From Vermamoeba vermiformis (taxonomy: Eukaryota), in the NCBI GenBank assembly GCA_045837725.1, contig JBEWZL010000232.1, positions 62,001-126,000 on the forward strand: DNA of 64,000 nucleotides, in the 5' to 3' direction. Positions 2,427 through 63,218 of the stretch are shown piece by piece; positions within the stretch are counted from its first letter, which is position 1; every line of letters begins with the position of its first letter. Under the pieces are notes generated by a model, which did not search any database, had not been told where the DNA came from, and worked only from the letters and a program-made list of their open reading frames with translations. Both the position numbers and the translations under genes were made by a program.

Positions 2427-4734
2427 CTAAGCGGATTTCTTGATCAGCGGTACGAAATATAACTGATTTCTTCGGTCAATTAACCAAGGCTGCAGTGCCA
2501 AGCCTATGATATAACGTATATTAATATATCATCCTATTGATAACTATTATTCTAAGAAAATAAGATGGCAAGTGAATTTCAGATTCAGATGCGGATTTGA
2601 GGATGAAAATTCATCTTACCTGCAAAAGCGCTGCCCAAGATACCGCAAGCGTACCAAAAACTGACAGAAGACAAGCAGAATTCTTTGTAAGCATCGTCAA
2701 TCTCTGAAGAAATCAGGTAGAAAGCGTTGACGTAGATCGAACCACCAATAAGACCTTCCCAAATAATAATAGGGAACAAGATCCAAATATTAGGAATGAA
2801 ATTCCAATACGCCACGGCCCTAAGTAAGCAAAAATATTATTATTTTCATCATTACAAAAATTCGGATCCAATTTAAGTTGGAATAATACTATTGTTCTGA
2901 ATAATAATATAAATATTACAATCAACTTACCATAAAAATACTAAATTGACCACTTGCAAGGTCGCTACAATGTACAATCGCTTGATCGGGAAGAAATTGA
3001 CCGACGAACGACTAATGAAGACACCGATTTGGTAGCTATTTTATACAATACTATAAGCTTACTATCGAAAAGTAAACTATGTAATATACTCACAGCAACG
3101 CGTAGTATCGATAGTCTCTATTGTCAGTGAAGAAGTACAAGTCCTTAGGGAATTGCAAAGCTGAAAAGTAGGTTAGATCCATCATTCATTTTTTTCGATC
3201 ACGTGCTACGCTACGTCTTAATGCATAGTACGTACCTTTAGTAACGCCCTGGTTGATAAGATATTCGGCGAAGTAAACCAAGAACAAAGGACCAGTGTAC
3301 TTAAGCAAGGCCTAGTGTTTTTTAAACTATTAGAACTCAATACATAATGTAAATTATAGTCCCAATACGTACGCCTTGCAATTTGAGTTTCATGGCAAAA
3401 GTCAACGGAGCCTTTTCAGTGGGCTGATTGACGGGTGTATCTTCAACTTCACCGCGGATCAATTTCTCTTGCTCAGCACGTTCTTTTCTCTTATCGTATC
3501 GTTCCATAATAAAGAAATAGCTAAAGTCGAGTTAGTTATGCTCGGTCAATATGAATCTATTCCTGTACCTGATGGTCATGAGAATGGGCAAGGGACAGCA
3601 GATCCAAAGAGTGATTTCAGAGCTCAAATGAATCCAGTCACGTGCTGCCAAGTAGATCAACGAGCCACCAATGCCCGCAGCTCCTGTACCACTGCTGTAG
3701 GATGACACCTGTCAACGTGGATTATTCAATGAACTCGTCTTTTTTGTCATAAAGTCACCAGGCCACAAAGAGTCATTATGACTCCAAGTTCCTATAATAT
3801 TGTATATAGGACTCAACTATAATCTACTTACAGTATTCCTATAAATTAATATCGTTAGCTATGCGAAAAAAAGTTCGTGAAAATATTGCGGATCACGTAC
3901 TTGTGGAAGTAAGACGACAGAGCCATGTACGTAATTTCTCCGAAACCACAGCTAATTGAAGCAAAAACGACACCTATGAGCTTAATCCAAACATTGGCGA
4001 AGAGTGCTGTGATTACAAACGATGCTGACGCCGTGAGAGTGATGAAGATGACACGTGCTCTGAGATATTTTTCAGTGAACACGAAGAGTGATAAATGAGC
4101 GGTGCAAAAATAGTACGTACCCGTAAGGAATAACATGCATAAAAAATGGTGCAATACCCTGCGCAGGAAGGAATTAAAAATTTTATCGGGGTTTAGGTGG
4201 ATCTGGTTGGAAAATCTACACGAATTATAGAGTAAATAATTGATTGTTTTAATTACCTGTGCGATCAAACCCGGTAAAATATCGGCTAATAATACAGCTG
4301 AGGTTGGAAGTGGATCTGTTGTGCCGTTTTCAAGCAAATCCGTCGCTTAATAAATAAATTAGCACGATCAAGAACATTAAAATAAATTAATCTCTTTAAA
4401 TAGATTATAGATAGATAAATCAGCTTTTTCGTTGGAAGTTTGCGATCGTCGTTTCATAAATTAATTTCATACCTGCCGACAAGAATACTACATATGCAAA
4501 ATTGTTCATAAGGCCGCAAATAAAAAATGCAGCTAAATTTCTGATTTTTTCTGGCCTGACTTTCGCTTCACCGAGATTAGATCGTGCATCTGTTCAACGG
4601 TTAGTCTTAATAGCGAATAATAATGCTATACAATTATTGTGATATGCGGTCGAATCGTCCATTGGATAAAGAATGCCATTCAAAAGATCTTTACCGTCAT
4701 CGACTTTGTCGTATGAGCTCTTCTTATTGCCCAT
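2427..4734 (-). CDS. CLN3: Battenin / CLN3 (BTN1) lysosomal membrane protein, multi-exon
   Basis: FFICGLMNNFAYVVFLSA, VLLADILP, GVVFASISCGFGEITY, EYLINQG, WEGLIGGSIYVNAFY..S.E...YKEFCL are CLN3 family motifs. Confidence 0.92.
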
Positions 4735-21900: not shown

Positions 21901-24097
21901 GTGTTGTCGAACTTGCCTTCAACGCCGTACACGTACAATTTACCAACTGTCACGCTCTTCACGGCGTTCTTGATGACTTTGAATGGCTGCACAGCACCTC
22001 CTTTCCTAAAGATTGCATTGTCGTTAGAATCAAGGCCATGAACGTGCTCGTGTCACGTGACACAATGAAATAAGTCCACTTACTTTTTTCTGCGTCGTCG
22101 ACCACCATCACCGTCTTCACTGTCTTCCATTTCAGTGGCGCTTTCGCTGATGGAATCATCGTCATCGTCATCACCTGAACCACGCATTGAACGACGAGAG
22201 GAACTTCTGCGCTTCAGTCTACGGCCTACAGACACAAGTTAGGAGATAAATAAGTTACGAACATATCATTCGAGCACGTACTGTCACGATCACTGCCGCT
22301 GTCCTCATCGCCACCGTCACGCACACGTGATCGGGACTCGCTCTTGCGCATTCGAGCAGCCTTCAACGGTGCACCAACACTGAATCTGAGACGAATCTCG
22401 GGACTAGCACCCTTCTTCTTGCTCGTCATGGGGTAGTACTTGTCACGTGATTTGCCTTTGATTTCTTTCATCGGCACTGACGCTACTGCCACTTTCTCGT
22501 CTTTGTCGCACAAAGCTACGGTGAACATGCACTCGTCTTCTTTCATCTTGTCGTCGAGTAAGCTACAACACGAACGGTCAGTAGGTGAATTTGAAGGTAC
22601 GATAATGCTGCAGTCAGTACTTACAATTTGTCCTTTGAGTTGAAATTCAAACTTTCTTCTTTGGTCTCAGCTGCATCAGCTTTGAACTTGCCGCTGCCCA
22701 TTTTAATCTTAACATTCGGGTGTTTCAAGCCTGACACGCCTTTCACGTCCAAGACTGAAGCACAATATTCATTAAGCACGTGCATATATAATTTTAGCTA
22801 TCATAACTTACCTTCGAAGTAGAGCGAGTTCTCCATGTCCACCTACGGAAAAATTTTCAGTTAAAAAAGTGTTACTGACCAATCGAAAACTCCATTAAAA
22901 GTGCACGTGTTACTCTCGCAAAAAGTGTAGTGTATAATAGGTCCCTAGTACTATAATACACGGGCATATGCAACGGTGACTTACCTCTTCTGAGCCCTTG
23001 AATGAAGCTCGAATGTGTAACTTGGGATTTCCTTCAGTCTTCTTTGACCGCTTTTCCAATTGAAACCAACCGTCTGTAGTCTTCTTATTTACAATGTCTT
23101 TCACGATAAAGTTGCATTGACCCAAGAACTCGTCTTTTGATCGGTCATAATCGTATACGTGAATTTTGATTTCATCTTCCAAGTTGTCAATATCACTATA
23201 ACGAATTGGTTAGACCGTGAGTATCGCCAATTAATGTAATTAAAGCAAAAATAATGGTCTGAAAGTGTTTGAAAGCGACATAAAATGCGCATAAATAATT
23301 TTGGTTATTTTAGCTACAAATCAATTGTTTTCGCTATTAATGCTATATTATTGTTAAAATATTGCTTGATATTACTATTATGCTTGCATAATATCGTTAG
23401 ATTAGCAAATAATTGAGTCGAAAGTTCGGATAATTTTGTTACTCGTGTTAACAGTGTTTCATAATCGCTAAAATACGTACAAATTAAATGATTCGTTCCA
23501 ACGAGGATTTAAATTCTTTTCAACCACTTTTGTACGGTGTTTTTGATCGCCTAATCGCAATTTAACATAGGGATTTCCTGCGTCTAATGAACAAGGTTAA
23601 AATTGATTATAATCGTATAAAATTAATTATTATAATAATTTAGTGTTTATAGAGTATATTCATGCAAGATTTTGTTAGTTTCTTTGAAAACGAGTATTTG
23701 GAGGTTAATTTGTATTGAAAATTCGAAAAATTGATTGTATTTCAAACGATGCAATTGTAATTTGAGTATCTATATATAATATGGAGTATAATAATGGTAC
23801 TTACTTGCTTTGCAAACCAAGCCGTTTGCTTCAACAACTAAATTGAATAAAAATTAATTTTTTATTGCTCGCGATCTAGTTATTGATAAAAGACTAGCTG
23901 ATTATTGATAAATACATATTATATACGCATAATTTATGGGTTAAATTCGTTAGTAATATCATGCAAAGAATTGCCGAAAGATCGGATTGTCGCGCTCAAA
24001 ATGTATTCAATGAAATTGAGTATCGGCAAGCGACAATATTGTATATATTAATTAATATAATATACGTACTATCTAATTTGATTGTTCCTTGAGCCAT
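18961..24097 (-). CDS. Five-C2-domain + Rab11-like small GTPase fusion protein with C-terminal CxC
   Basis: Continuous in-frame splice path from MAQGTIKLDIVEANGL..NPYVKLRLG..LNPRWNESF through five C2 domains into LFKVILIGESGVGKT, IGIEF, WDTAGQERY, YYRGA, GNKCDL, ETSAL, ending PKCKC*. Confidence 0.85.
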
Positions 24098-25800
24098 TCT
24101 ACTTGCTTTTCCTGATTTCATTATACAGATTAAAAATTGAGAGTTTCAATTATATTAATTAGTTGTTGCATTTCAAGCAATAATGTATCGATTAAAATTA
24201 ACGAGCAATTAAACAGATTACATAGCAGGTAAATAATCGCTCGACATAACGAACAAAAGTCATCGAAATCCAATCCAACTTACCGATCAAATTTCCTTTT
24301 TACAAATAGCCATAAGATACTTAAAATATATATACTGTACAAGTTGTTTCTACTACTATCCTAATTACTACTGCGTTCTATTGTGTACAATTAAAATAAC
24401 CGTTTCACTTTCAAATTTAATTGAAAATCTTTTTTTAATCTCCCGCAACTGAACGAACTTGAAGAGCATAAAGACCTTATTTACACTACCTCAATAATAA
24501 CATATTATAAGTACAAGCACCTTGTACTCAGCCGATCAGCTGCAGCGGTTTAGCGGGATTTGAACAAAACGAAATGGAGCCTACTTGTAGAGCACTGCCT
24601 CAATTATTTACGGCAAATGCACGTTAATAATTACGCAATAATTATTGGCAGATGTATGCAAATGATTTACAGTCCATTGAATTTGGGAGCTTTTTGGCTA
24701 AAGGACGCACGTAAGTTCTTACCAACCTCAATATTAATTAATAATCATAATAATCGCCATGACACTTTAAGTACTGCTAAACAAGTAATAACTTAGCACC
24801 AAGTGGTGATAAAAAAGTATTTATAAGCCTTTTTTTACGCCTACCAACGAATAATCTTCGACGCAAACGTACGCACCGCGTATTAATAATGCATTAAATA
24901 ATAATTTTGCACTTCTTGATTTTTTTTCCTAGTGGATGTTGGACATTGCAAATATTAATCAATTTTCTGCCCCGTGTACGATCGCTCGGATATTCGTACA
25001 AATTGCCCGCAATTGTCTTGAAGAATTCGTTCGGAGCATAGAGCGATACGCATTCTACGTCCTGTAGTATTAATTTGTGTTGTGCTTCGCTATGTGGCAA
25101 CAGACACAAAAAAAATTTATTAACCGGCCATTGTACGCCACGTCTTTCCATTAGATCGTTATAATAGCATCCTAATAATGCGTTTATTTAGTATTATGAA
25201 TTTATTGAATCAGATCTAAACTCCGGACTGTGTATTTGTTCGGGGAGTTGCGTGGTGTCAAATCAATACCACACTATTCGCGTTACATGAACTGTTCATA
25301 TTATATTCTAGCTTGCATTAAACCAACCGAAGCATCACAGAGCTACCGTGCCATATAAAAACGTTGGACCGCAATTCATTATCAGAACCACGTTTCGAAA
25401 CGCGATTTAAGTTCCGAATATTCACGTTATAACACATGTAGATGAACATTAGTTAACAGGATTATCAAATTTTATTTGAATCAAGCAAAATTTTCGCCTT
25501 TTATGGCAATTTAGACGGAACGTTCTTTTCCGTGCCACGCGGTTGGTAAAAGAAACTGAATAGCAATGAACTATGTATGAGATGAAGGGGATTTTATTTT
25601 ACAAGAGGCTATTTTACATTATAAATACATTCGCAAAATTGGTTGGTTTGGTTCGGGTGTTTTAAAAATAGGAGTTCATCCCTTCAATCCAGTAATACAG
25701 AACTATGTCTTGATCTTCGCTTAGGTTTAACTAAATAGGATTACTTATTAGTTCACAATCTTGCACTTTGACTTTACAAATTAGTCGATTTCTGGCGGTT

Positions 25801-32857: not shown

Positions 32858-34257
32858 CTACGAGACCAAGTACTTTATCAATTCGCTGACTATTAACACA
32901 TTCAAGCTGTTGCCCAATAAACTGTACAATTGTTTGCGCGTGAAGTTCTTCTCGAACAAACTAAATTCTTGGCTCGGGAAGCCGTGAATATTCGCGATCT
33001 CTCGTGGACTGAAGTATCGCAGCTGTAATTTCTTCAGCGACTCGGGGTCACTTTCCACTGCCTTAATATCCTACACAACAGTAACGTTACAGTACTGGTA
33101 TTATAATATTAGGTCTAGTTGGCGTTACCTTATCTGCTAGCTGAATGACACTTCCCGTGCCTTCAACGTATCTTCCGTACGCCTTCGTGAAACAACATGA
33201 CCGCGTTGAGTCAGAGAGCGTAATATCTAACGTTACGTGAGTAAGTGACGTATATACGAGGCATTCATAATATAACAATTACCAAACAGCATTCCTGATT
33301 TAAGTAAAATGTTCTCGGGCACCATTAGCTCTGCTCGTTTTTCTTCGCTTAGTTCTTCTAAAAATTCACTCAATGGTCGTACATGGTGCGTTGAATTGCC
33401 TTGTACATCGAAGTAAGTGCTGTTAGGAATGAATTGAAGACAAGGCTCTGTCTGACTCGGGACATCCGTAAACGGCTTGTTCTTGCGAGCCTAAAATCGT
33501 TTGATCAATATTAAAAAGGCTCGTATATTTAGTAATTTCTAAGCCAGTATGACGATAGATAGTTGGATGATCGTGACACGTACCAGACAGAAGTAACGCA
33601 GGCGCGAGTTTGGAATACCGAATTGACTCGGTGTTAAATGAAATTCTTGGAAGTGGTAATCACATGCTTGAAATTGGTCGACTAATAACCGCCTTGTTTC
33701 CGAGATCTGATCCAGAAAATTAAAATCGATTAAAATAATTCGTAGGATTTTAATTACCTCAAATCCTTTAACATTCTCTATTAATATGTACATTGGTGGC
33801 TTTTGAAGCTTTGGCAGAATTTTTATAAGGTGCAGAAAGCTCTGTGCTCGTTGATCTTCAGTATCGCGTTGTTTACCTTCAAAAAATATTAATAATTGTA
33901 GATATATATACAATAAATTATACCAATTCGTGTGTATGGCTGGCAAGGCGGCGAAAGAAGCCACATCCGAGCTTTATGCTGATCTAATTCAACCGGTGAT
34001 AGCGACTCGATGCTTTTCTATTATAAACCCTTAGTAATCGCGTACAGTCTTTCATTAATCGTAATGGTGCGTACTTGATTGACTTTCTGTTTGAAGTTGC
34101 GTAAATACAGGTCATTAGCATTGGTGTTTATATCGAAGGCCTGTACGACATCGCCGTGCCAGCCAGAAAGCTTTAATCCGCAATGCAAGCCACCTATGCC
34201 ACTATAAAATTCAAGCGCTCGTTGTGGAGCTTGATCTGCGGGCGTGTTGTGTTCCAT
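32858..34257 (-). CDS. TRDMT1: tRNA (cytosine-38) C5-methyltransferase DNMT2
   Basis: Motif I LEFYSGIGG, IV LLSPPCQPY, VI ILIENVKGF, VIII QFGIPNSRLRY, the DNMT2-specific CFTKAYGRYVEGTGS, and X LGNSLNV. Confidence 0.95.
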
Positions 34258-45155: not shown

Positions 45156-47528
45156 ATGTCGGGTAAGAGCCAAGCACTATTAGGCAATTAAATTAAGCCA
45201 AGCTTTAAAAACGACCAATTAATTATCATTATTAATAAAATTGTAACGATTTTTGGCAATAGTAATTAAATTAATTTTAATTTTCAGAACAGAACGATAT
45301 AACGCACCGTTTATCCGAGGACTCGCAAGTGCTCACGGTGACTATCAGCAAAAATTACCGAAGAAAAGAACCTTGGGGCAATCAGCTGCAGGACTTGTCA
45401 AAGCTTCCTAAATTGAAAGATCTTCGGATTGAGAATGAAGGCACCACGACAGTTAGAGATTTCGAGGGTGTATTTCAAGCCGTGGAGCACAATATTTCGT
45501 TGACACAAATTTCTTTCAAGGATCAGGGGCTGGGACCCAAAAAAACCTTCATGGACAGTTACTCTCCTCTCGGATGGGGCTTCGGTGGTTTTTTTTCTAA
45601 TTCAACGGTTAAATCTCTGTCCTTAGAAAGCAAGTAATTATGTATAATTAATTCTGGTCTAACTATTGTGAAATCAGATCTAGCCCTGAATAATTGCATT
45701 CAACCAATCACTGATGCTCTCTGCCACAATGAAACCTTGCAAAGCCTAATGATAAAAGGTAATTATATGTAAAGGTTAAAATGCTAACTACTTACGCAGA
45801 CAATTCGCTCACCAAACAAGATTTGCGTATTCTGTATGAAGCGTTAATGGTCAACAAGTCGTTAGTACATCTAACCTTACCAAGTACGTTTTGGCGGTCA
45901 TATGATATTTCTTCTATTCTATTGCTACAACGGACTCTAATTTTAATATCAAATTTAGGTCATTTGTCCGCGGAACCAGATTACATAAGAGCGATGAGCT
46001 GTGTTGCAGAGAACAAAAAGTACCTGCAGAGCCAGCGCCACAGAAACCACAGCAACGGCGGGACCGGAGAGCAGCGGCCGACAGAGCTCCAAAAGAGCAA
46101 AGAAATCAAGGAATTAGTGCGAAAGAACAAGGAATCACAAAAGCAATCGATCGATTCAGTGTCTGAGCAAACTCTGAATGCGCAGAAGATCCAACAACTG
46201 ACCAACGAGTGCGAGCAGTTCAAACAAGAAAACAACGCGCTTAAAACTGAAATTTCGCAATTGAAACAAGAAATCGAAGAGCTGAAGCAAGCCAAGCTCT
46301 TGCTTTCAGACACGAACGAGCAGCTTCAGAATCGAAATCGAAGCCTCGAGCGAAGAGCAGACGGAGACGCGGGCGGAGAAGGGAGAGAGAGGCGCACAGA
46401 AGAGGGGACCGAGAGCCCCGAAAGTCAACAAAACGTGAAGTCGAGCAACAACTTTGAGGAAGAATATAAAGCGTTAAAACAAGAGATAGAAGACTTGAAG
46501 AGAGACCTAGCACATGGGACCTCAGTAGATATTCCGCATCAGGAGATAACGCTCGGCGATCCCATCGGAGCTGGTACATTCGGCGAAGTGTACAAGGCAC
46601 TGTGGCACGGCCAAAACATTGCTGTGAAACGAATTAAACTCTCAACCTTAGGACTATCGAGTTTCGAGGACCTTATGCACGAGTCACGCACTGTCATGTA
46701 AGTGACGTTAGTCTACTCATTGCTAGGACCTCGGTCTATAAGGACATCTTTGACAGGCGTCTGCACCACAAGCATATCGTACTATCAATGGGCACCACTC
46801 GAAGGCACGACACAGAGGAACTAATGCTCGTAATGGAGTACATGAAGCACGGGTCGCTTCACAGCTTGCTGTTCCCTAGTGTAGGAAAGTCAGTCAAGCT
46901 AGAACGTCACCAAATCATTCAACTGGCCCTAGATGTCGCCAAAGGCTTGAACTACTTGCATTGTCTCACTCCGAAGATCATTCATCGTGATCTCAAGTGC
47001 GAGAACATCCTCGTAAGTTATCGATTGACACGTGTCATCGTGTTGAACTAATTATTATACCACGTAGTTGTATCACAACAAAACGCGAGCGAAGATCAGT
47101 GATTTTGGCACCGCTCGATTCCTCAACAAGAACTCCGTTGCGAGAACAATTCACGGCACTTTGGGCTATGTTGCACCTGAAGTTTTGGAGGAACAGGATT
47201 ACGATGAAAAAGCCGATGTGTTCTCGTAAGTGGATGTTACTATACTAGACAGGACCGGCCATATTAATCAGTCTGTTTGTTGAGGTTTGGAATGGTATTG
47301 CTGGTTCTGGCCACGAGCTGTGCAAACTTGCCAACGATGCGAGATGCAACGAGACTGCGAAACAGAATCAATGAGATACTTGCAACGAGCCTTGACGATG
47401 ATGACGGGTTGAAGAGGCTTATTATCGATTGTTGTCAAGTTAGTCCCGCTGAACGACCATCCGTCAAACAATGTATTGAAGTGTTGAAAGCACTTCGCCA
47501 AAAAGACACGAACGACGAATACAATTAA
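45156..47528 (+). CDS. LRR - coiled coil - TKL protein kinase, array copy K2
   Basis: ATGTCGG|gtaaga mini first exon, LRR exons, coiled coil, IGAGTFGEVY, HRDLKCENIL, DFG, APE. Confidence 0.85.
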
Positions 47529-53005: not shown

Positions 53006-55155
53006 ATGGGTAAGATAAATGCATCCAACCATTACGCAATTAAATTTAATTAACTTTAATTATTAAGCCAAGTTATAAAGCCGACCAATTAAATATCATT
53101 GGTAATAATTGTGGGCAATTAACAACAATTAATTTTCATTTCAGAAAGGAATTGTATATCGTATCATTTTTCTGAGGACTCGCAAGTGCTCACGGTAACC
53201 ATCAACAAAAATTATCTAAGAAAAGTACCTTGGAGCAAACAGCTGCTGGACCTTTCAGTATACCCGAAATTAAAAGATCTTCGGATTGAAAATGAAGGCA
53301 CCACGAGCATTGAAGATTTTGAGGGTGTATTTCAAGCTGTGGAGCACAGTTCTGTGACACAGGTGTCCTTCGAGGATCAGGAGTTGGAACCCAAAATAGT
53401 CCCTTTCCAAACAAAAGATATCGACGATTTTGAGACTAATACGACTGTGACATATCTTTCCTTAGAAAGCAAGTAATTATGCAATTAAATCTGGTCTAAC
53501 TATTGTGAAATCAGATCTAGACGATCACTGCATCCGATTAATCGCTAGTTCTCTCCGCCGCAATAAAACCTTACAAAGTCTAACGATAAAAGGTAATTAA
53601 GTTTAAAGGTTATACGTGCTAACTTTTCACGCAGACAATTATAAAAAGCTCACCAAACAAACTCTGCGTCGTCTGGATGTAGCGTTAGAAAATAATTGGT
53701 CGTTAGTACACCTAAACTTACCAAGTATGTTTTTGGCGGGCATACGGAATTGCAATATTCCGACATTATGTTACAACGGACGCTAATTTTTATTATTAGG
53801 TCATTTCTGCATGGAATCGGATTACAAAAGCGCGATGAGGCATATTGCAGATACCAAAAAGAAAATTCAGATCCGACAACTGACCACCGAGTGCGAGCAG
53901 TTCAAACAAGAAATCGAAGAGCTGAAGCAAGCCAAGCACTTGCTTTCAGATGCTAACGAGCAACTTCAGAATGGAAATCGACGCCTCGAGCGAGCGGCAT
54001 TCACGGCACGCGCTAAATTGACCTCACTGTTGCAAGAATACAACAAACAAGACCAAGCGATGAGGTTGTTGCAAGAAGAGGTTCGGACACTCAGAGAACA
54101 ACACGCTGTGCTGGCAGTAGATATTCCGCACTACGAGATAACACTCGGAGAGCTCGTTGGAGCTGGTGGATATGGCGTAGTCTACAAGGCTCAGTGGCAC
54201 GGTCAGAACGTTGCTGTCAAGGGCGTCAAAGTCGAAGACATTGAGACTGGAAAGATCGACAGTTTGATTCACGAGGCACGCACTGTGATGTAAGTGCCGT
54301 AGAATGACACGAGCGAATGACGTTTTGACACTTTGTTTTGACATTTTGGGTTGATAGGCGACTCCATCACAAGCACGTGGTGCTGTCAATGGGCACGACA
54401 ATGAAGCCGGACACCAGCGAGATCATGCTCGTGATGGAGTACCTCAAGCACGGGTCGCTTCAGGACCTACTTTTCAAGCACCGCGTAAAGTTAGAACGTC
54501 CCCAAGTCATCCAACTGGCACTTGATATTGCCAAGGGCTTGAACTACTTGCATTGTCTCACTCCGAAGATCATTCATCGCGATCTCAAGTGCGCGAACAT
54601 CCTCGTAAGTTATCGGTTGACACGTGTCACAAATTTGATTTCTTGTCATTGATGACATGTATGGGCTTTCGTTTCAGAGATCTCATTGCTATTTTAAATG
54701 TTCAGTTGTATAACAGCCGCTCGCGAGCAAAAATTAGTGACTTCGGCACAGCGAGATTTCTTAATCAAAATTCGGTGGCAAAAACGTTTCAAGGTACTTT
54801 TGGATACTTCGCACCCGAGCTGGTAGAAGAAGAATATGATGAAAAAGCAGATGTCTATTCGTACGTAGAAATTGTAGTCTTTGAACAGAGATCTAACAGC
54901 AGTTTGTTTAGCTTTGGAATGGTTTTGCTTGTACTGGCGACGAGTAACAGCAACTTGCCCACGACACGAGACCCATCAAAGCTCAGGAACAAGATTGATG
55001 AGATACTGAATACGTCAAGCAGCATGAACAACGATGAACAGTTCAGAAAGCTCGTGCACGATTGTTGTCAGATCAGTTCCACTGAACGACCATCCATGAA
55101 GCAATGTATCGAAGTATTGAAGGCGCTACGCCAAAAACATGCAAATAATAATTAA
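53006..55155 (+). CDS. LRR - coiled coil - TKL protein kinase, array copy K4
   Basis: ATGG|gtaaga first exon, LRR exons like K2/K3, VGAGGYGVVY, HRDLKCANIL, DFG, APE. Splices in frame. Confidence 0.85.
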
Positions 55156-55180
55156 AGTTTTATTAATGATAACTATTACT

Positions 55181-57260
55181 TCATTTGCTTTTTGGTTTTA
55201 ACTTCTTTCTTGGATGTTCCTCCGACTCTTGCTCAGGTTCACCTTCATCATCCCTCTTGCGCTTTGTTCCCTGTTATTTATCATTAGCGAAACTGCAAGA
55301 AAAGCAATGGTGTCACCTTTTTGGGGGCCTTTTGGCTCTTATTGGACTTTTTTGCAGCTTTCTTTTCAAGCAATTTTTCCTCTTCCTTCTTCTCAGAAGC
55401 TTCCTCATTGGTGCTCTTTTTCATCTTGGACATTTCCTTCTTCCCAAACTTATGTGCCTTCAGGGCTTCTGACAGAGGGGTCAGTGACTTGTGATCTGCC
55501 CTGATTAGTTGTCCATTGAGAGTGTTTGCATACAAAGTGCCATTGCTAATGCGTTCTGCAATAAATTCTGCAAATATGTGCATCTCCAGCACAGGCATGG
55601 ACAGATAACCTTTTTCACTGTCTGGTACTGGAGTGAATGCAACTATACCCTCTTTGATGAATTTCTTGATGTGTATGTCTTTGTCTGCCTACAAGCATGC
55701 TGAATAAGAGAACTAAATGCACTAGCAGTTGTAGCACTTACTCCAGGGCCCTTAAATACATCCTTGTAAGCAACAGCAGTTTGAGTAATACATGCTGCAA
55801 TGAGACAGTTGTAAGCCTCCACTTTCCTCTTTGCATCGGTTACTCTGGCAGGGTATTTGAAGGAGAACAATTGCTTGACTTGTGATAACAAGGCTTCTGT
55901 GTTGTGTTTTGTGTCATCTGAGCTCAGTGCATGTGCTGCAAACTCAATCATTCTGGTATTGCCTCCTATGGTAAATCAGTATCACATAACCTCTTTGTTA
56001 GGTTAACTTACCAAGCCATGGCAAAGCTTCTTTGACATAGGGGGTGCACACAATCTTTGCAGCATTCATTTTGCAGATTTCATTCAAAGCTTGCTCAAGC
56101 ATCAGGCTACTAGCTTTATCTGTCAAATGTTGAACATGAACCACATTAATTGGGCCACTGCTTAATTCAAGTAACTTTGGTTCTTCTAAAATCTCCTCTG
56201 CTAAAAATGCAGCTGCAATCCCACTGACAACAAGCTGAATCCTGACATTCTGGTGTGTATCACAAAGTTGTTGGATTGCATATTTAAGTTCAATATAGCC
56301 CTTGCCAATGTTTTGAATCTCATCAAGATAGAGAACCAGCTTGAATGGTTTTTTCCTAGTGAACTGCAAATTGTTAGTGAAGTTAGCACAAGCAATTGGA
56401 CAATACCTTTTTAAGGTCATCTGGAAGAATAAGTTCAAGAGTGTGCAGTATAGTGAGTTCTGAGTCTTTTGGATAGGAGATGTTGAGTCGTTCAAGGAGT
56501 TGCCTTGCAATGCTTGATGTAGGTACAACAGTTAAATCAACAATCTTGTCAGCTTTTTCTATTTTCATTTGAGCTTGAACTCCTTGAGGGTGGCTGGTTG
56601 TCTCAGCAGATACCAACTCCAAGTAGCGCAAGCAGAGCCTTGTTTTGCCAATACCACAAGGACCACTGATGACTAGTGTTGGTGGACGACTGCCATCTGG
56701 TGCACCAGCAAAAGTGTAGTTAGAGACCTTAATCATTTCTGTAAGCTCTGGTCTATCAACCCAAGTTTGCAGTGTTGTTGCAACACGTCTAGAGGCTGTT
56801 GGACCAGGAAGGGAATGTCTACGTAGAGTTTCGCTAGGCTTGTGTGAATCTTGCGAGCCACCAAACGAGGCTCGCGTTGCTGGTCTGGAGAGGAACTGTT
56901 GTTCTTTGTCCCTGTCTAAAAATAAGCTTTAGAAACGAACGAAAAGTAACTTTTGTGATATCTTATCCCATTGTGGTAGACATTGATACCTGGTTCCGGA
57001 GCGAGAGACTTCTTTAGGAGGTCGATCTCAGCCCACAAAATACTCGCTGTACCATGTGGCAAACTCATTGCTAAGGTATCAATGCTTTTGATTGAGAATA
57101 GCGCCTGGCCGGTATATTTCTGCTTTTGCAAAACTGCCACGTCGTCTGCGTCAAGGCGCAATACTTTTCGTGCCCAAGCCGCCACTTCTTCAAGTGTCCA
57201 AGCAGGGTTAAGCGTTGGTTTGGTCGTCTTATTCGAGTTGTCTGTTCTCAATTTAGTCAT
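55181..57260 (-). CDS. SAM domain + P-loop NTPase (STAND/AAA-like, Crinkler-type architecture) with basic NLS-like tail
   Basis: WTLEEVAAWA..LQKQKYTGQAL..LPHGTASILWAEIDLLK (SAM); WVDRPEL; Walker A SGPCGIGKT; Walker B LVLYLDEIQ; GGNTRMIE; tail KRKR..PRKKLKPKSK*. Five short introns keep frame. Confidence 0.75.
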
Positions 57261-57825
57261 TAGTTAAGACGTCTTATTGCATGCGTTTTTGGTGCGAAGA
57301 TTCGGATCACTTTGATTCAATCAAATTTTGGGCTACCTTTTGCTGTTAGAAAACTCATTTATCGCGAAATAAGGTTACATTTTAGTTCGGATGAAGTCAA
57401 ACAAAGTACCAAAAAAACTGATTCCGAATCTTCGTCGCCGTAAATCCGCAAATTTAACTATCTTGGGTATATAAAAAACAGCTATTAAGTGTAGAACCTA
57501 TTGTAAATATTGAAAATTAATTTGCAATTAATTTGCCTTGATCGAATTTCATTTTCAATATTGCGAATTGATCATCATTGTAGTTATTTTGTTTATTAGG
57601 TAATTGGCGGCGCCATAATTAATTTCTGCTTATTTTTGGCAGCAATTAGGCCAATTTGTTAAAATAAATATTGTAATTTTACCTCGGGTCTCCATAAGCT
57701 GTTTAGTAATCAGACGATTTAAATGCAAGTAAACAATTGGAATCGATGACGTGGACAGATGAGCAAATCAAAACTTTGAATGGATTTTATGAGCCTTGAC
57801 TTTTTGGCGGTACCAGAAAGAACGC

Positions 57826-58101: not shown

Positions 58102-61100
58102 TTATTTGTGCTTGCTCTTCTCTTTCTTCTTGTCCTTGTCCTTCTTGTCCTTGCTGTCCTTCAACATGGTCGTGTCAACATAGCCGGGCTGAGCACCAGA
58201 AGCATTGCCGCCCTTGATGCTGCTCGTGTCCACGTAACTGCCGTTCTTGCTCACCGCACTTGTGTCCACATAGCTGCTGTTCTTATTTGACAAGTTGTTC
58301 GTGTCTACGTAGCTCGCGTTGTTTGTGGTAGGACTGTTCGCAGGACTGCCACGGGAACCACGTGACAAGTTGGACAAGTCGACGTAGCTGCCGTTCTGGC
58401 TTGCGGGACCTGAGCCAGGAGCAGGTGACGAGGACCTGTCGTTCAATGACTTGGTGTCGATGTAACTGCCTCCGCTGGAAGGAGGGCCTTGTGACAGGGG
58501 TCTGCTCAACACCGATGTGTTCACGTAGGCACCGCCAGAACCACCGCGTTCTGTGGAGAAACCAAGCGGCGAGACGTTGCCCAAGTTATCTGAATTGCGG
58601 CGCGTCACTTTGTCTTCAGCAATAAGCGCTGTAGTTCTGCTGCCAGGAGCGGTCATGTTCATTGAAGTAGGCGGTGTGCCGCTCGTTTTGTTGGACAAGT
58701 TGCGCGTGTCAATGTACGTGCCACCATTGTTTGAAGGGCTAGGATTTGAGGTCGTGATACTCGGTGGCAATGTCGCGTAGTTAGACTGCACGGTAGATCT
58801 GTTGCTCGTGTTGCTCAAATTACCCACGGGCTTGTTAGTGCCATTCGTCATGTTTGAGGCAGGACGATTCAACAATGCAGTGTCAATGTAACCGCCTTGC
58901 GTGTTGTTAGTCAAGTTGTTTGACGAGCCAGTAGGTGGCAGACTGGCATAGTTAGACGGTGCAGTGGATCTGTTGCTCGTGTTTGTCAAGTGGCCGAGTG
59001 GCTTGTTCGTGCTATTGTCAGAGGATGCATCAGCTGAAGGCGGCAAGACACCGTACTGCGAAGGAGAGTGCGTGGGGTTGGTCTTGTTAGTCATCATCGG
59101 ATTGGCAGGCATTCCGTGACCTGAGCGGGGAGTGCTTGAGGCCGAAGAGCTGTCAGTCTTGTTCGACAAGTTGTTGCTGTTTTGTTCGGGCAACACTCCG
59201 TACTGCGACGGCGTGTGCGTCCTGTTGGTGTTGAGACCAGGGCTACTTGTTACATTCGAAGACATTCGACGCATTGGGCTATCATCACGAGGTGTGGTCG
59301 GAGGCAAAACACCGTACTGTGATGGCGAGTTGGTCGTGTTAGTTCTGTTGGTACCATTGCCCAACATCGGACTGCCACTAGCGCCAGTAGAACCTGATCG
59401 CGGTGTGCGTGAACCAGCAGAACTGTCACTTTCCTTTCGGCGCGGTGAAACAACATTGGGATCGGTAGGAGGCAAGACACCGTACTGCGAGGGAGTGTGC
59501 GCGTTGGTTCTGTTCGTGGTGTTGGTGGTCAATGGGTTGTTAGTCACCGTGTTGTTCGAGAGACCACTGTTAGTCCTGTTGTCGAGACTGCCGCTCACTG
59601 TCAGATTCGCACTTGAGTCACCAGTAGGAAGAACTCCGTACTGCGAAGGAGTATGTGCACGGCTGGTTGTGTTCGTGGTGTTGGTCAAATTGTTGCCAGA
59701 ATTAGTAACGTTTGGCAAACTGTTGCTCGAAGTGTTCATCGAAGAGGCCGAGTCACCAGTAGGCAACACACCATATTGAGCAGGGCCGCGACCAGCAGTG
59801 TTGGTACGATTGAGCGTGTTCGTTGAGTTGCCGCCAGTCAACGGGTTGTTGGTCACCGTGTTGTTTGACAATCCACTGTTGGTTCTGTTGTCAAGGCCAC
59901 CACTCACTGTCATATTTGAGCCTGAGTCACCCGACGGCAAAACACCGTACTGTGAAGGCGTGTGCTTGACAGTTCGGTTAGTGCCGTTCAAGTTCGAGCC
60001 AGACTGTGTCAAGTTGTTATCTGGCGTGGCTGGAGGAGCACCACCGCCACTCACGGTCAAGTTGGCACCTGAGTCACCAGTAGGAAGAACTCCGTACTGA
60101 GAAGGTGTGTGCCTGACAGTTTTGGTGTTGGTCATGTTGCCCGACTGGGTCAAATTGTTGTCCGAAGCACCAACAGTAGAGCCACCGCTCACAGTCATAT
60201 TGCCTGACTCGCCAACTGGCAACACACCGTACTGCGCAGGACCGCGTTGAGTTCTGTTAGTGCCATTGAGGCCTGTGCCTGACTGGGTAAGATTGCCAGA
60301 CATGCTGAGGCTGCCAGACTGCGTCATGTTGCTGTCAGACAAGCCACCGCTGACAGTCATATTCAGAGCGCTGTCACCAGTAGGCAACACACCATATTGA
60401 GATGGTCCACGGCTAATAGTGTTCGTTGCGTTGGTCATGTTGTTAGCGGGCACTGGGTCCTCTTCGCTGTCCGATTCCACATCAACACCGTCATCAATAA
60501 CAGGCAAGGCACTGGTCGGAGCACCGCCGTCAGTAGAAGGCAGAACTCCGTACTGCGAGGGATTGATGCGTGCTTCAGACAGGCGTTTAGTCACATTTGC
60601 CACTGGCGAGGTGGGTTCAAGAATGGAATAACGGGTGCCAGGGTCTTCGTCTTTTTGAGGCGATGCTGTGGTCACGTTCGTAGTATTGCCGCTGACAATA
60701 GGCGTGCTCACGGTCTGGTTGTTGTTCTGAGAGTTTTCACGGCGGTAACCATCACGTGCAGCTGCGACAAAATAGTTAGTAAACCTTGCATCAAGTATTA
60801 TTTTTTTGCATTAACTTACGAGTATTGAGGGGAATGACATCGTAGGGATTCATCTCGCCTTGCATGTCTTGCGGCACACCCAAGTTGTACTCAACGTTGT
60901 TGGCATTGACGTTGTTAAAGTTCACTGGAGGCTTACGCAAGTCCTTCGCGTCCACATAGCCTTCACCGCCATTGTTGGCAACGTTATTAGGTCCAACGTA
61001 TGATGTGCTTGGCGTGTCAGTTGATTGCTGGAGTCCATTCGCACTGACATCAATGTACCCGGGAGTTGTGGTGCCAGAACCCGAGTCACGTCTGCTGCTA

Positions 61101-63218
61101 CTGCCCGAGTTGATTGGCTGTTGAATGTGTGCTTTGCTGGATCTCTTGCTCATGCTGCCCGATCTCTTCTTGTCAGACTTGTCCTTGTCTTTGTTCTTCT
61201 TTTCTTTCTTGTCCTTAGACGAGGCGTGCTTCAACTTCTTCTTGTCCTTGCTCGTTGACTTTTCCAAATCATCGACGCTGCTCGACGACGGCAAGTCAGC
61301 GTAGTTAGTGCTGTCAGGTGTGCTTGACGAGGCCTGGCTTTGTGTGGCATTGCGAGTTGAGCCAGGTGAGGACATCGGGATTGAAATGTACGTGGTCGGT
61401 GTTTGCACGCGCTGGTTGTCCACTCTATTTTCGTATTTGGGCACCGTAATGAACGTGAGTGTCTCCAAGGGGAGCTTGAATTTATCCGAATTAGCATCGA
61501 CGACTTCTTGCAATGTCGAGTGAGAACGACCGTTGCAGATGTAGCCATTAGCGGTCGGTTGAATCAGCGTGTGTTGCAATTGACCGTCGGCGATGAAGCT
61601 GACAGTCAAGTAGCCTTTACGAGAGCTGAAACGGAACAAGAAAGTGCCTTCAGGCTTGGATTTGAGCAGATCTGCGGCCTCGTCGTTATTTACATCGCCG
61701 TGGAACCAGCTGCAAGTCAAGTTAATAATCTGCACGGAATATTATATATAAATCGATAGTACCTCTCTCGTGTAATGGTCGAGTTAAACGGATTCTTTAA
61801 AATGTAATTGTAGTGGCGGATCAATGATTCTAAATTGTTGAAAACTCTGTTGGATTCGCCCTGAGCATCATTTTCATTGATAGAGTAGCCATTAGGAGGG
61901 CAGAAATGGATCAAAGTATGATTAATGCGCCTAGTTCCATCGACAAAAGCCAACGCAAAAGAGCCCATTTGAGATCGACTGAATCTGATCAAATAAGTGC
62001 CTATCTGTTGAAGCTCTAACAATCGCTCTGCTTCTTCTGAAGTCAAAAATCCATGGAACCATCTGTTATATACAAAATTAGATTCTTAATCATTAAATTA
62101 AAGAGCCTTTAAGGTTTGATCTCGATCGAGATCAGGTAAAACTTATAAAGAAGATACGCACTTGTTATTGACGACATTGCGGAGCTATAATAAGACATAA
62201 TAGTATTAGTAAAGTTGAAATGATATAAGTCAACGCTGGATCTTACATTTTGAATGGAATCTTTGAATGGACCGAAGGCTTTCAAAAACTCGTTAAATTT
62301 CAATAGAGTGACTTCGCCTGTGCCCGAATTATCTATAATTATACGTTAATAATGCACCTAAAATATTACGACCATTGTGGCGTATGAGGCACCAGTATAA
62401 GCCGAGTAAAACCACATCCTCATAAGAAAATTGGAATTCTCATTGTTCCATAGTAGTATAATGATTTAAAAATATAACGTGATTGCATATTGAGTAAAAT
62501 GACCTTGTAACTTACCGAGTACATAACGAAGAGATAAAAGACCTTCCTCATCTATGTCAATTTTTCTTGCTAGAGCGGCTGTAAATTTATTCCATTCGAC
62601 CATAACACCCTAAAATGGCAATTAATGAGTATAAATGACCATATACAAATTATAAATAAAAAAAACAAATTAAAATAATTAATTGGTTGGGCATCCACAA
62701 AATTAATAGACACTAAAATCAGGTAGGCTTACCTCGTCTTCAAAATATTCTTCCCATAATTTACGGCCATCAATATCTTCTAGAATACTCGTGTAATTTC
62801 TTTTTTTCTTTGGCTTCACATCTTTGTCTTTTTTCTTCTTGGTCGCGTTTAATTGCTCTATTTTTGCTACCATGCCTCGTACTAATCCATAAAGGGCTGT
62901 ATTAAGGTGATCTAAATTTCGTCTAACACGAGTGGATTGCATATAGCGCTTTAACTTTTGCTCAGCGTGAATCTTGGTCAAGAAGGTATCATAATCGCCC
63001 AATACTTTGACTAGATCATCTACTGGATTTTTGCCGGTGTCTTCTATGATTCCTTTCACGTTTGAGGCCTGCAGCTCATTATCGATCCGCTCTATAACGT
63101 TTTTAATAGTGACCAGGAAATCCGCATCCACAATTGCTTTGTTTGTTTCAAGGATCTTTTCTATCTTCGTGGCATGCTCCTTGCATTTAGCCAGGTCCTT
63201 TTTTACTTTCGAAGACAT
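58102..63218 (-). CDS. Four-helix bundle (MLKL/Cbl-N-like) + EF-hand-like + tandem SH2 protein with a long tyrosine-motif tail
   Basis: GRKLWEEYF..VEWNKF..DNSGTGEVTLLKFNEFLKAFGPF (Cbl-TKB-like EF), WFHGFLTSEEAERLL..GTYLIRFS and WFHGDVNNDEAADLL..GTFLFRFS (two SH2). An in-frame splice at about 60761-60821 joins the 869-aa repeat exon. Confidence 0.85.
58170..60560 (-). repeat. Coding repeats: 11x P[SA]QYGVLP, 2x SNYA[ST]LP, 9x Y[IV][DN][TL]
   Basis: Counted directly in the 58102-60711 translation; spacers are N/S/T/G-rich. Confidence 0.9.

Follow-up and report, generated by a model that had tools for sequence, protein, structure and literature searches.

The 64,000-nucleotide stretch of Vermamoeba vermiformis DNA analyzed here (contig JBEWZL010000232.1, positions 62,001 to 126,000; hereafter the window) contains a spliced and transcribed minus-strand gene, the product of which combines a weak SAM-like domain with a P-loop nucleoside triphosphatase (NTPase). 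In our model, six exons encode a protein of 584 residues in which the SAM-like domain is followed by a linker rich in serine, proline and arginine, the NTPase itself (with the motifs GPCGIGKT and LVLYLDEIQ) and a tail rich in lysine and glutamate. The NTPase-coding part lies in a block that is nearly free of CpG dinucleotides and that we call the CpG desert (55289-56785; all coordinates are positions in the window). The desert starts 130 nucleotides (nt) into exon 2 at the onset of the NTPase part, spans three introns, and extends in the 3′ direction as far as the stop codon or a possible last intron. The gene's 5′ exons have a normal CpG content (Table 1).

To describe the size of this deficit, we compared the desert with its surroundings. 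Between 55291 and 56780 (1490 nt, GC 0.414), base composition predicts about 64 CpG, of which 5 are present (observed/expected ratio, o/e, 0.078); the maximum-likelihood limits of the desert enclose the same 5 in 1497 nt. A preliminary description of this DNA had counted five CpG at 55552, 55837, 56489, 56627 and 56687, and this count is exact. The window as a whole contains 3100 CpG (o/e 1.107) at a GC content of 41.8%; the draft genome published for V. vermiformis has 41.7% (PMC7125106). The 2-oxoglutarate dehydrogenase gene of the window also matches a transcriptome protein of V. vermiformis, with 87-100% identity in most exon-level alignments and 45-75% in a few pieces that run into introns, in agreement with V. 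vermiformis or a close relative as the source. Among 199 background windows of 1497 nt, the strand-symmetrized CpG o/e has a mean of 1.141 (standard deviation 0.136) and a minimum of 0.802, which places the desert at z = -7.8. The Poisson probability of at most 5 CpG where 72.5 are expected at window density is 5.8e-25. The o/e comparison proposed in the preliminary description, run within the window, thus puts the desert outside the normal range, and the claim of a sharp CpG desert in CpG-rich surroundings stands.

GC content does not set the desert apart from the background (0.414 vs 0.419). The products expected from CpG transitions are in excess, as had also been claimed: TpG occurs 147 times (o/e 1.44) and CpA 125 times (o/e 1.58) between 55291 and 56780, with GpC at 87 (o/e 1.36). 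The symmetrized TpG/CpA o/e of 1.51 exceeds the maximum of the background windows (1.49; mean 1.09). Together, TpG and CpA amount to 272 where the window o/e would give about 198, and this excess of about 75 roughly equals the 60-67 CpG that were lost. We also observed that the AG/CT dinucleotide o/e in the desert (1.23) is above the maximum of the 199 background windows (1.13), and decay of CpG in CCG/CGG context would predict only part of this.

The desert is a singular feature of the window. The three longest CpG-free gaps (652, 285, and 264 nt) all lie inside it, and the fourth longest measures 189 nt. Other blocks with o/e below 0.45 in 300-nt windows are limited to two short single ones, at 3551-3850 and 45476-45800. 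Support ranges of 2 log-likelihood units place the edges within 55130-55332 and 56619-56821, which fixes them to about 40-170 nt, and the first CpG beyond the desert are found at 55288 and 56786; the linker and the SAM-like exon are CpG-normal, in agreement with the earlier statement that CpG returns above about 56785. At the 5′ edge, contigs assembled from two other studies (X4, 56639-56859; X7, 56618-56896) run through with 0 differences, which excludes an assembly join there. A contig of DNA run X1 (54606-55351), possibly the source sample, is the only one to span the 3′ edge. Elsewhere in the window, an AT-rich segment (23001-24500, GC 0.28-0.32) has the highest CpG o/e, 1.4-1.8.

The composition of codons and introns indicates how the CpG disappeared. 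The desert introns contain 0 CpG in 142 nt. NCG accounts for 0 of the 103 NCN codons in the desert, compared to 247 of 1069 in 14 host open reading frames (ORFs) and 10 of 43 in the 5′ part of the same mRNA. CpG across codon boundaries occurs once where 27.6 would be expected, and CGN makes up 4 of 13 arginine codons in the desert vs 147 of 222 in host ORFs. Since the introns are free of CpG and the NCG, cross-codon and CGN classes are all deficient, the depletion does not reflect a choice of codons or amino acids. Depletion of the introns but not of the 5′ part of the same mRNA also argues against selection at the RNA level. The third bases of NCN codons in the desert (A 51, T 35, C 17, G 0) agree with conversion of NCG to NCA, which predicts 49.8 NCA codons, whereas pro-rata avoidance predicts 33.9; CpG were therefore converted rather than avoided. 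Similarly, pyrimidines at codon position 3 preceding G occur in a ratio of T 68 to C 1 in the desert and T 313 to C 290 in the host (13 ORFs, one low-complexity ORF left out). Outside CpG contexts, codon usage in the desert is host-like: with a G/n of 0.134, only 1 of 14 host ORFs (range 0.125-0.592) is nearer to the pooled reference. The desert looks like host coding sequence in which CpG were turned into TpG and CpA, and the earlier proposal of a CpG-to-TpG/CpA mutational product is borne out by these data.

The encoded protein left its own trace on this process. Four of the five surviving CpG occupy positions 1-2 of arginine codons, where host class frequencies predict about 19% (binomial P about 0.006), which indicates that the protein was under selection while CpG were being lost. 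The part encoded by the desert is poor in arginine (13 of 442 codons, the lowest share of 16 sequences compared). The reading frame did stay open, as the preliminary description stated, over 452 codons.

The structure of the gene is supported in its 5′ half by spliced contigs from the same two studies that cover the 5′ edge (Table 1). A long open frame begins with an ATG at 57260, but these contigs place this ATG in the 441-nt intron, and we rejected it as the start codon. The contigs are missing over exons 3-5, which is uninformative at their depth of 3-5. The desert introns are short (43, 46, and 53 nt) compared to introns with RNA-supported joints elsewhere (74, 101, and 441 nt; a small sample); the introns of the 2-oxoglutarate dehydrogenase gene in the window measure roughly 60-240 nt as judged from tblastn gaps.

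Table 1. Coordinates of the CpG Desert, the Gene Containing It, and the Adjacent Kinase Gene
Feature	Position	Strand	Remarks
CpG desert	55289-56785		5 CpG/1497 nt, o/e 0.08, excess of TpG and CpA
Exon 0	57683-57747	-	5′ untranslated region (UTR; transcribed at least to 57747) and ATG at 57695, 13 coding nt; CpG-normal; joint 57683/57241 in X4 and X7 contigs
Intron	57242-57682	-	441 nt; CT..AC ends on + strand; X4 and X7 contigs
Exon 1	56990-57241	-	weak SAM-like domain; CpG-normal
Intron	56916-56989	-	74 nt; joint 56915/56990 in X4 contig
Exon 2	56407-56915	-	S/P/R-rich linker, CpG-normal down to 56786, then start of NTPase with Walker A GPCGIGKT
Intron	56364-56406	-	43 nt, 0 CpG; 10-nt loose end of X7 contig at 56407 equals first 10 nt of exon 3
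Exon 3	56012-56363	-	Walker B-like LVLYLDEIQ and remaining NTPase core; no CpG
Intron (inferred)	55966-56011	-	46 nt, 0 CpG
Exon 4 (inferred from frame and GT..AG)	55742-55965	-	one CpG, at 55837
Intron (inferred)	55689-55741	-	53 nt, 0 CpG
Exon 5 (predicted from sequence)	55284-55688	-	K/E-rich tail; stop at 55284-55286 if there is no further splice
Mini-exon at alternative 3′ end (predicted)	~55180-55265	-	possible last mini-exon, with 3′ splice after 55317
Protein-kinase gene, 3′ part	54526-55155	+	convergent; CpG-normal; ends ~130 nt from desert

The domain assignments are tentative. Pfam searches with five exons returned only SAM_PNT and P-loop matches (AAA_16, AAA_22, and TniB-like), all below threshold. 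SAM_PNT matches exon 1 with an E-value of 0.002 and 18.5 bits, under the 24-bit cutoff, and hence we refer to this domain as SAM-like only. The NTPase matches AAA_16 (E 0.0008, 20.4 bits, cutoff 32.6) and AAA_22 (E 0.0014, 19.3 bits, cutoff 27). Feature-based look-alikes belong to AAA_16, STAND, and ORC-like clusters, those nearest to the Walker A part being bacterial or archaeal AAA_16/STAND-like clusters (0.89-0.92), and we treat them as leads only. A sequence search of the PDB gave no match below E 0.39, and PADLOC returned nothing meaningful apart from one weak SspF match (E 0.0044) on the P-loop.

The desert is not confined to a single copy. In addition to the contigs of the window itself, run X1 contains extra contigs over parts of the desert that are about 92% identical to it, and the X1 depth over the desert does not exceed about three times that of single-copy sequence. 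We compared these other copies with the window over 401 nt of this one run, using 32 usable differences among those listed. There are at least 32 differences over the 401 nt, and the other copies contain 0 CpG. Only 1 of the 32 differences listed touches a CpG (55837-8, present in the window copy only), although random substitutions with the same share of transitions would give 4.9 (P 0.035). The differences listed include three adjacent TG/CA doublets (55903-4, 56047-8, and 56067-8; simulated P 0.0004 for three or more). Two of these change residues, giving Cys vs His from an ancestral CGY arginine codon and Met vs Thr from an ancestral ACG. A TG/CA doublet is the trace of an ancestral CpG that decayed on different strands in two lineages, which argues that the decay was independent, parallel, and subsequent to the split of the copies. 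On the evidence of this one run, CpG decay appears to have continued in each copy after they separated. The search for CpG>TpG changes between paralogs, as suggested in the preliminary description, thus gave a positive result among the differences listed.

Extra contigs with at least 90% identity also raise the depth at 56757-56873, a bin that includes the 5′ edge, and at 57108-57224 in the SAM-like exon. This observation suggests that the copies are duplicates of the whole gene rather than of a mobile NTPase module.

Beyond these copies, the family is small. Exon 3 has only three relatives among 1.84 billion representative proteins (P0001, 90%; P0002, 36%; P0003, 34%), all of them unnamed exon-sized pieces on short contigs. 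At near length, the 90% clusters contain one relative of exon 3, namely P0001, a piece of 130 residues from an NCBI contig. We asked whether the extra X1 contigs derive from P0001 and rejected this: P0001 matches 55 of 64 residues of the other copy and 56 of 64 of the window, and so represents a third distinct copy. Exon 2 had no match at E ≤ 0.001 among proteins of 299-2000 residues. A profile of exon 3 and P0001-P0003 yielded 503 pattern matches in JGI metagenome contigs and 89 in IMG/VR, 0 of which were confirmed in either collection.

The preliminary description had likened the segment to a transposon or endogenized element, and this part of it is not supported. Pfam found none of the hallmark genes of transposable elements (TEs) or viruses (transposase, reverse transcriptase, integrase, capsid, or packaging ATPase) on the five exons. 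Neither terminal repeats nor target duplications beyond chance occur at the desert edges. A perfect 10-nt inverted repeat that brackets the desert (55285-55294/56827-56836) was rejected as a chance occurrence, since 1.9 kb of sequence contains three such perfect 10-mers and about 1.7 would arise by chance. In place of many copies or viral relatives we found the three protein relatives and none in IMG/VR or JGI metagenomes, and the segment combines host-like codon usage outside CpG contexts with a position inside a spliced and transcribed gene. The desert is not a transposon or viral insertion.

Other genes near the desert were characterized along the way. On the far side of the gene, an ORF on the minus strand (60791-61741) encodes an SH2 domain (Pfam SH2, E 6.7e-16) and is followed by an open frame of 902 codons, the two together covering 58102-61741. 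The 902-codon frame is rich in serine, threonine, and asparagine and carries many repeats of tyrosine motifs of the SQYGVLP and SYVDT types. It looks like a phosphotyrosine scaffold protein. Relatives of the SH2 gene with 81% identity occur at two metagenome loci (L001, 5815 nt; L002, 3895 nt) with a CpG o/e of 1.20 and 1.17. Both loci stop before the NTPase locus, and synteny through the SH2 gene accordingly gave no result. At the convergent kinase gene, the summed X1 contig depth over the kinase core (54534-54650) is 742, compared to about 36 for single-copy sequence, which suggests that closely related kinases form a large family. RNA run X13, which carries the same species label as X1, contributed 17 reads that are all 90-95% alike and map to the kinase only; it is uninformative on the NTPase gene. 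The species label shared by X13 and X1 probably covers a diverged strain or species.

We then turned to the question as to how the desert may have formed. Deamination of 5-methylcytosine (5mC) is the textbook cause of a raised CpG transition rate. On balance, we consider it probable that long-standing CpG hypermutation of the 5mC type has acted on the NTPase-coding body of this gene, a resident and lineage-specific one, and on that of its few close copies. According to this model, the exons and introns of this body would have been exposed to a strongly raised rate of CpG-to-TpG/CpA mutation by 5mC deamination, while selection on the protein would have held the frame open and preserved some arginine codons. 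The promoter-proximal part of about 1 kb (5′UTR, first introns, SAM-like exon, and linker) and all neighboring genes would have been spared. This mutation would be caused by methylation of CpG through a DNA methyltransferase whose gene lies elsewhere, and the methylated patch may start where promoter-proximal permissive chromatin ends and stop at the end of the transcript. The process could be recent or ongoing. Judged from sequence, methylation-driven CpG decay is the most likely origin of the desert, which would add an example from a lineage for which methylation has not been described.

Several observations weigh against this model. The only C5-methyltransferase-like gene in the window is DNMT2-like (about 33190-33960, minus strand), an assignment we presume from the motifs SPPCQPYTR, ENVKGF, and CFT; the preliminary description had likewise placed DNMT2 in the window, and we locate the DNMT2-like gene near 33.2-34.0 kb. 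Full-text literature searches gave no report of 5mC or of DNA methyltransferases in Vermamoeba. The copy comparison uses just 32 differences among those listed, and the other copies, which come from one run, could be alleles or a second strain instead of paralogs. In exon 3, about 8 of 12 nucleotide differences alter the amino acid, so that constraint on the protein may be weak. In addition, no established mechanism accounts for a methylation edge that stays fixed within an exon until almost every CpG has gone. Finally, transcription and splicing of the gene and the sparing of its 5′ kilobase set it apart from the mostly silent, promoter-methylated genes reported in Acanthamoeba (PMC12344493).

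The desert could instead have decayed elsewhere. In this scenario, the NTPase module lost its CpG in a methylated compartment elsewhere in this genome (a repeat, a silenced copy, or heterochromatin), was joined to a CpG-normal 5′ part by recombination or gene conversion, and is no longer methylated. A capture of this kind would account for an edge that coincides with the onset of the NTPase within an exon and not with the boundary of a gene, and it agrees with the host-like starting composition and with the existence of a small family of copies. However, the copies seem to be whole-gene duplicates, given the extra contigs over the 5′-edge bin and the SAM-like exon, and their decay was independent after they diverged. 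CpG have not returned so far (1 of 32 differences at a CpG, among those listed), and the flanks carry no repeats beyond chance. We therefore regard capture as unlikely. The suggestion in the preliminary description that the segment came from a methylated source fits only if that source had a host-like composition; a source of any other composition is at odds with the data.

CpG could also have been removed by a process that does not involve maintained 5mC, such as a repeat-triggered mutator resembling repeat-induced point mutation (RIP), a targeted cytosine deaminase, or selection against CpG. The presence of several similar copies and the residue-changing steps from Arg to Cys/His and from Thr to Met would be consistent with such a process, as would the occurrence of SAM-like and STAND-like NTPase architectures in immune-type proteins, although these are weak leads only. 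The surviving arginine codons and the open frame are better explained by slow decay filtered by selection than by bursts of mutation. Indiscriminate C-to-T change that wrecks the gene, as in fungal-type RIP, is not what we found, with an open frame of 452 codons and 4 of 5 survivors in arginine codons. Moreover, the TpG/CpA excess is balanced between the strands (1.44 and 1.58), and depletion of the introns but not of the 5′ part of the mRNA argues against RNA-level selection. We know of no RIP-like system or RID-type enzyme in Amoebozoa, and we give processes of this kind only a slim chance. A still more speculative idea, which we would rate as a long shot, is an undescribed locus-specific CpG methylation or hypermutation system that would target the NTPase (sensor) module of a SAM-like/STAND-like family of the immune type, with promoter-proximal chromatin protected. 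Such a system might give facultative control and a faster divergence of the protein (Arg to Cys/His, Thr to Met) in a host that is constantly attacked by giant viruses.

That the NTPase part arrived horizontally from a donor poor in CpG (a virus, an animal, or a bacterium) is very improbable. The block is sharply bounded and compositionally odd, its closest Walker A look-alikes are bacterial or archaeal AAA_16/STAND-like clusters (0.89-0.92, leads only), and Vermamoeba hosts giant viruses with which gene exchange has been reported (PMC7125106; preprint 10.64898/2026.05.21.726589). Against such a donor stand a codon usage that, CpG contexts aside, follows the host as closely as almost any ORF in the window, patterns of NCN codons and position-3 pyrimidines that match those of the host after CpG conversion, and a GC content equal to the background. 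Three short GT..AG introns, one of them RNA-supported, interrupt the segment, and relatives are missing from IMG/VR and JGI metagenomes and number just three among the 1.84 billion representatives. An assembly chimera or contamination, which the abrupt change in composition might suggest, is next to negligible, since contigs from two other studies span the 5′ edge with 0 differences and both frame and splicing are continuous.

Methylation-type decay of a resident gene can be compared with several known systems. Like animal and plant gene-body methylation, the desert spares the 5′ end, extends from about 1 kb past the transcription start to the end of the transcript over exons and introns, and lies in an expressed gene. 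Gene-body methylation in animals and plants affects many housekeeping genes, whereas here one desert block occurs in 64 kb with many genes. The usual CpG depletion of gene bodies is also far weaker, and its edges far less sharp, than in this desert with an o/e of 0.08. With fungal RIP and methylation induced premeiotically (MIP) the desert shares C-to-T type changes limited to multicopy sequence and sharp limits; it differs in that the frame was kept, the survivors are selected arginine codons, and the copies seem alike past the desert edge.

Protist genomes offer closer parallels. In the amoebozoan Acanthamoeba castellanii, CpG methylation is reported to be sparse, with 1.3% of CpG, 381 genes, and 3.4% of the genome affected (Sarre et al. 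2025, PMC12344493). The methylated genes there are mostly silent, carry methylation in the promoter as well, and often have viral ancestry, and Acanthamoeba is reported to lack gene-body methylation. A kilobase-scale patch in a CpG-normal background, as in Vermamoeba, is the expected trace of such long-term local methylation; unlike the Acanthamoeba genes (PMC12344493), the Vermamoeba gene is transcribed, spares its 5′ kilobase, and revealed nothing viral in our searches, and its methylation would be read from CpG decay. Endogenous insertions of giant viruses and TEs marked by 5mC are described for Amoebidium (PMC11244446) and Acanthamoeba. The Vermamoeba desert resembles them in that a local mark, in our case deduced, would occur in an otherwise unmethylated protist genome, and differs in its lack of viral or TE genes, its host-like codons, its position inside a spliced host gene, and its size of 1.5 kb vs tens to hundreds of kilobases. 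In its spared 5′ kilobase and its transcription, the gene bears a closer likeness to gene-body methylation restricted to a single gene family.

The presence of one CpG-decayed gene body with clean boundaries in a genome rich in CpG strongly predicts, from sequence only, that this lineage has or recently had targeted 5mC, and the desert provides a concrete locus at which targeted 5mC in Vermamoeba can be tested. It also indicates that CpG decay can reshape a protein-coding family, by loss of arginine, without destroying it. If methylation is indeed the cause, a second amoebozoan branch (Tubulinea) would join the sparse-methylome picture obtained from Acanthamoeba, with a pattern that is new in comparison: the affected gene is expressed, its 5′ end is spared, and the edge falls within an exon.

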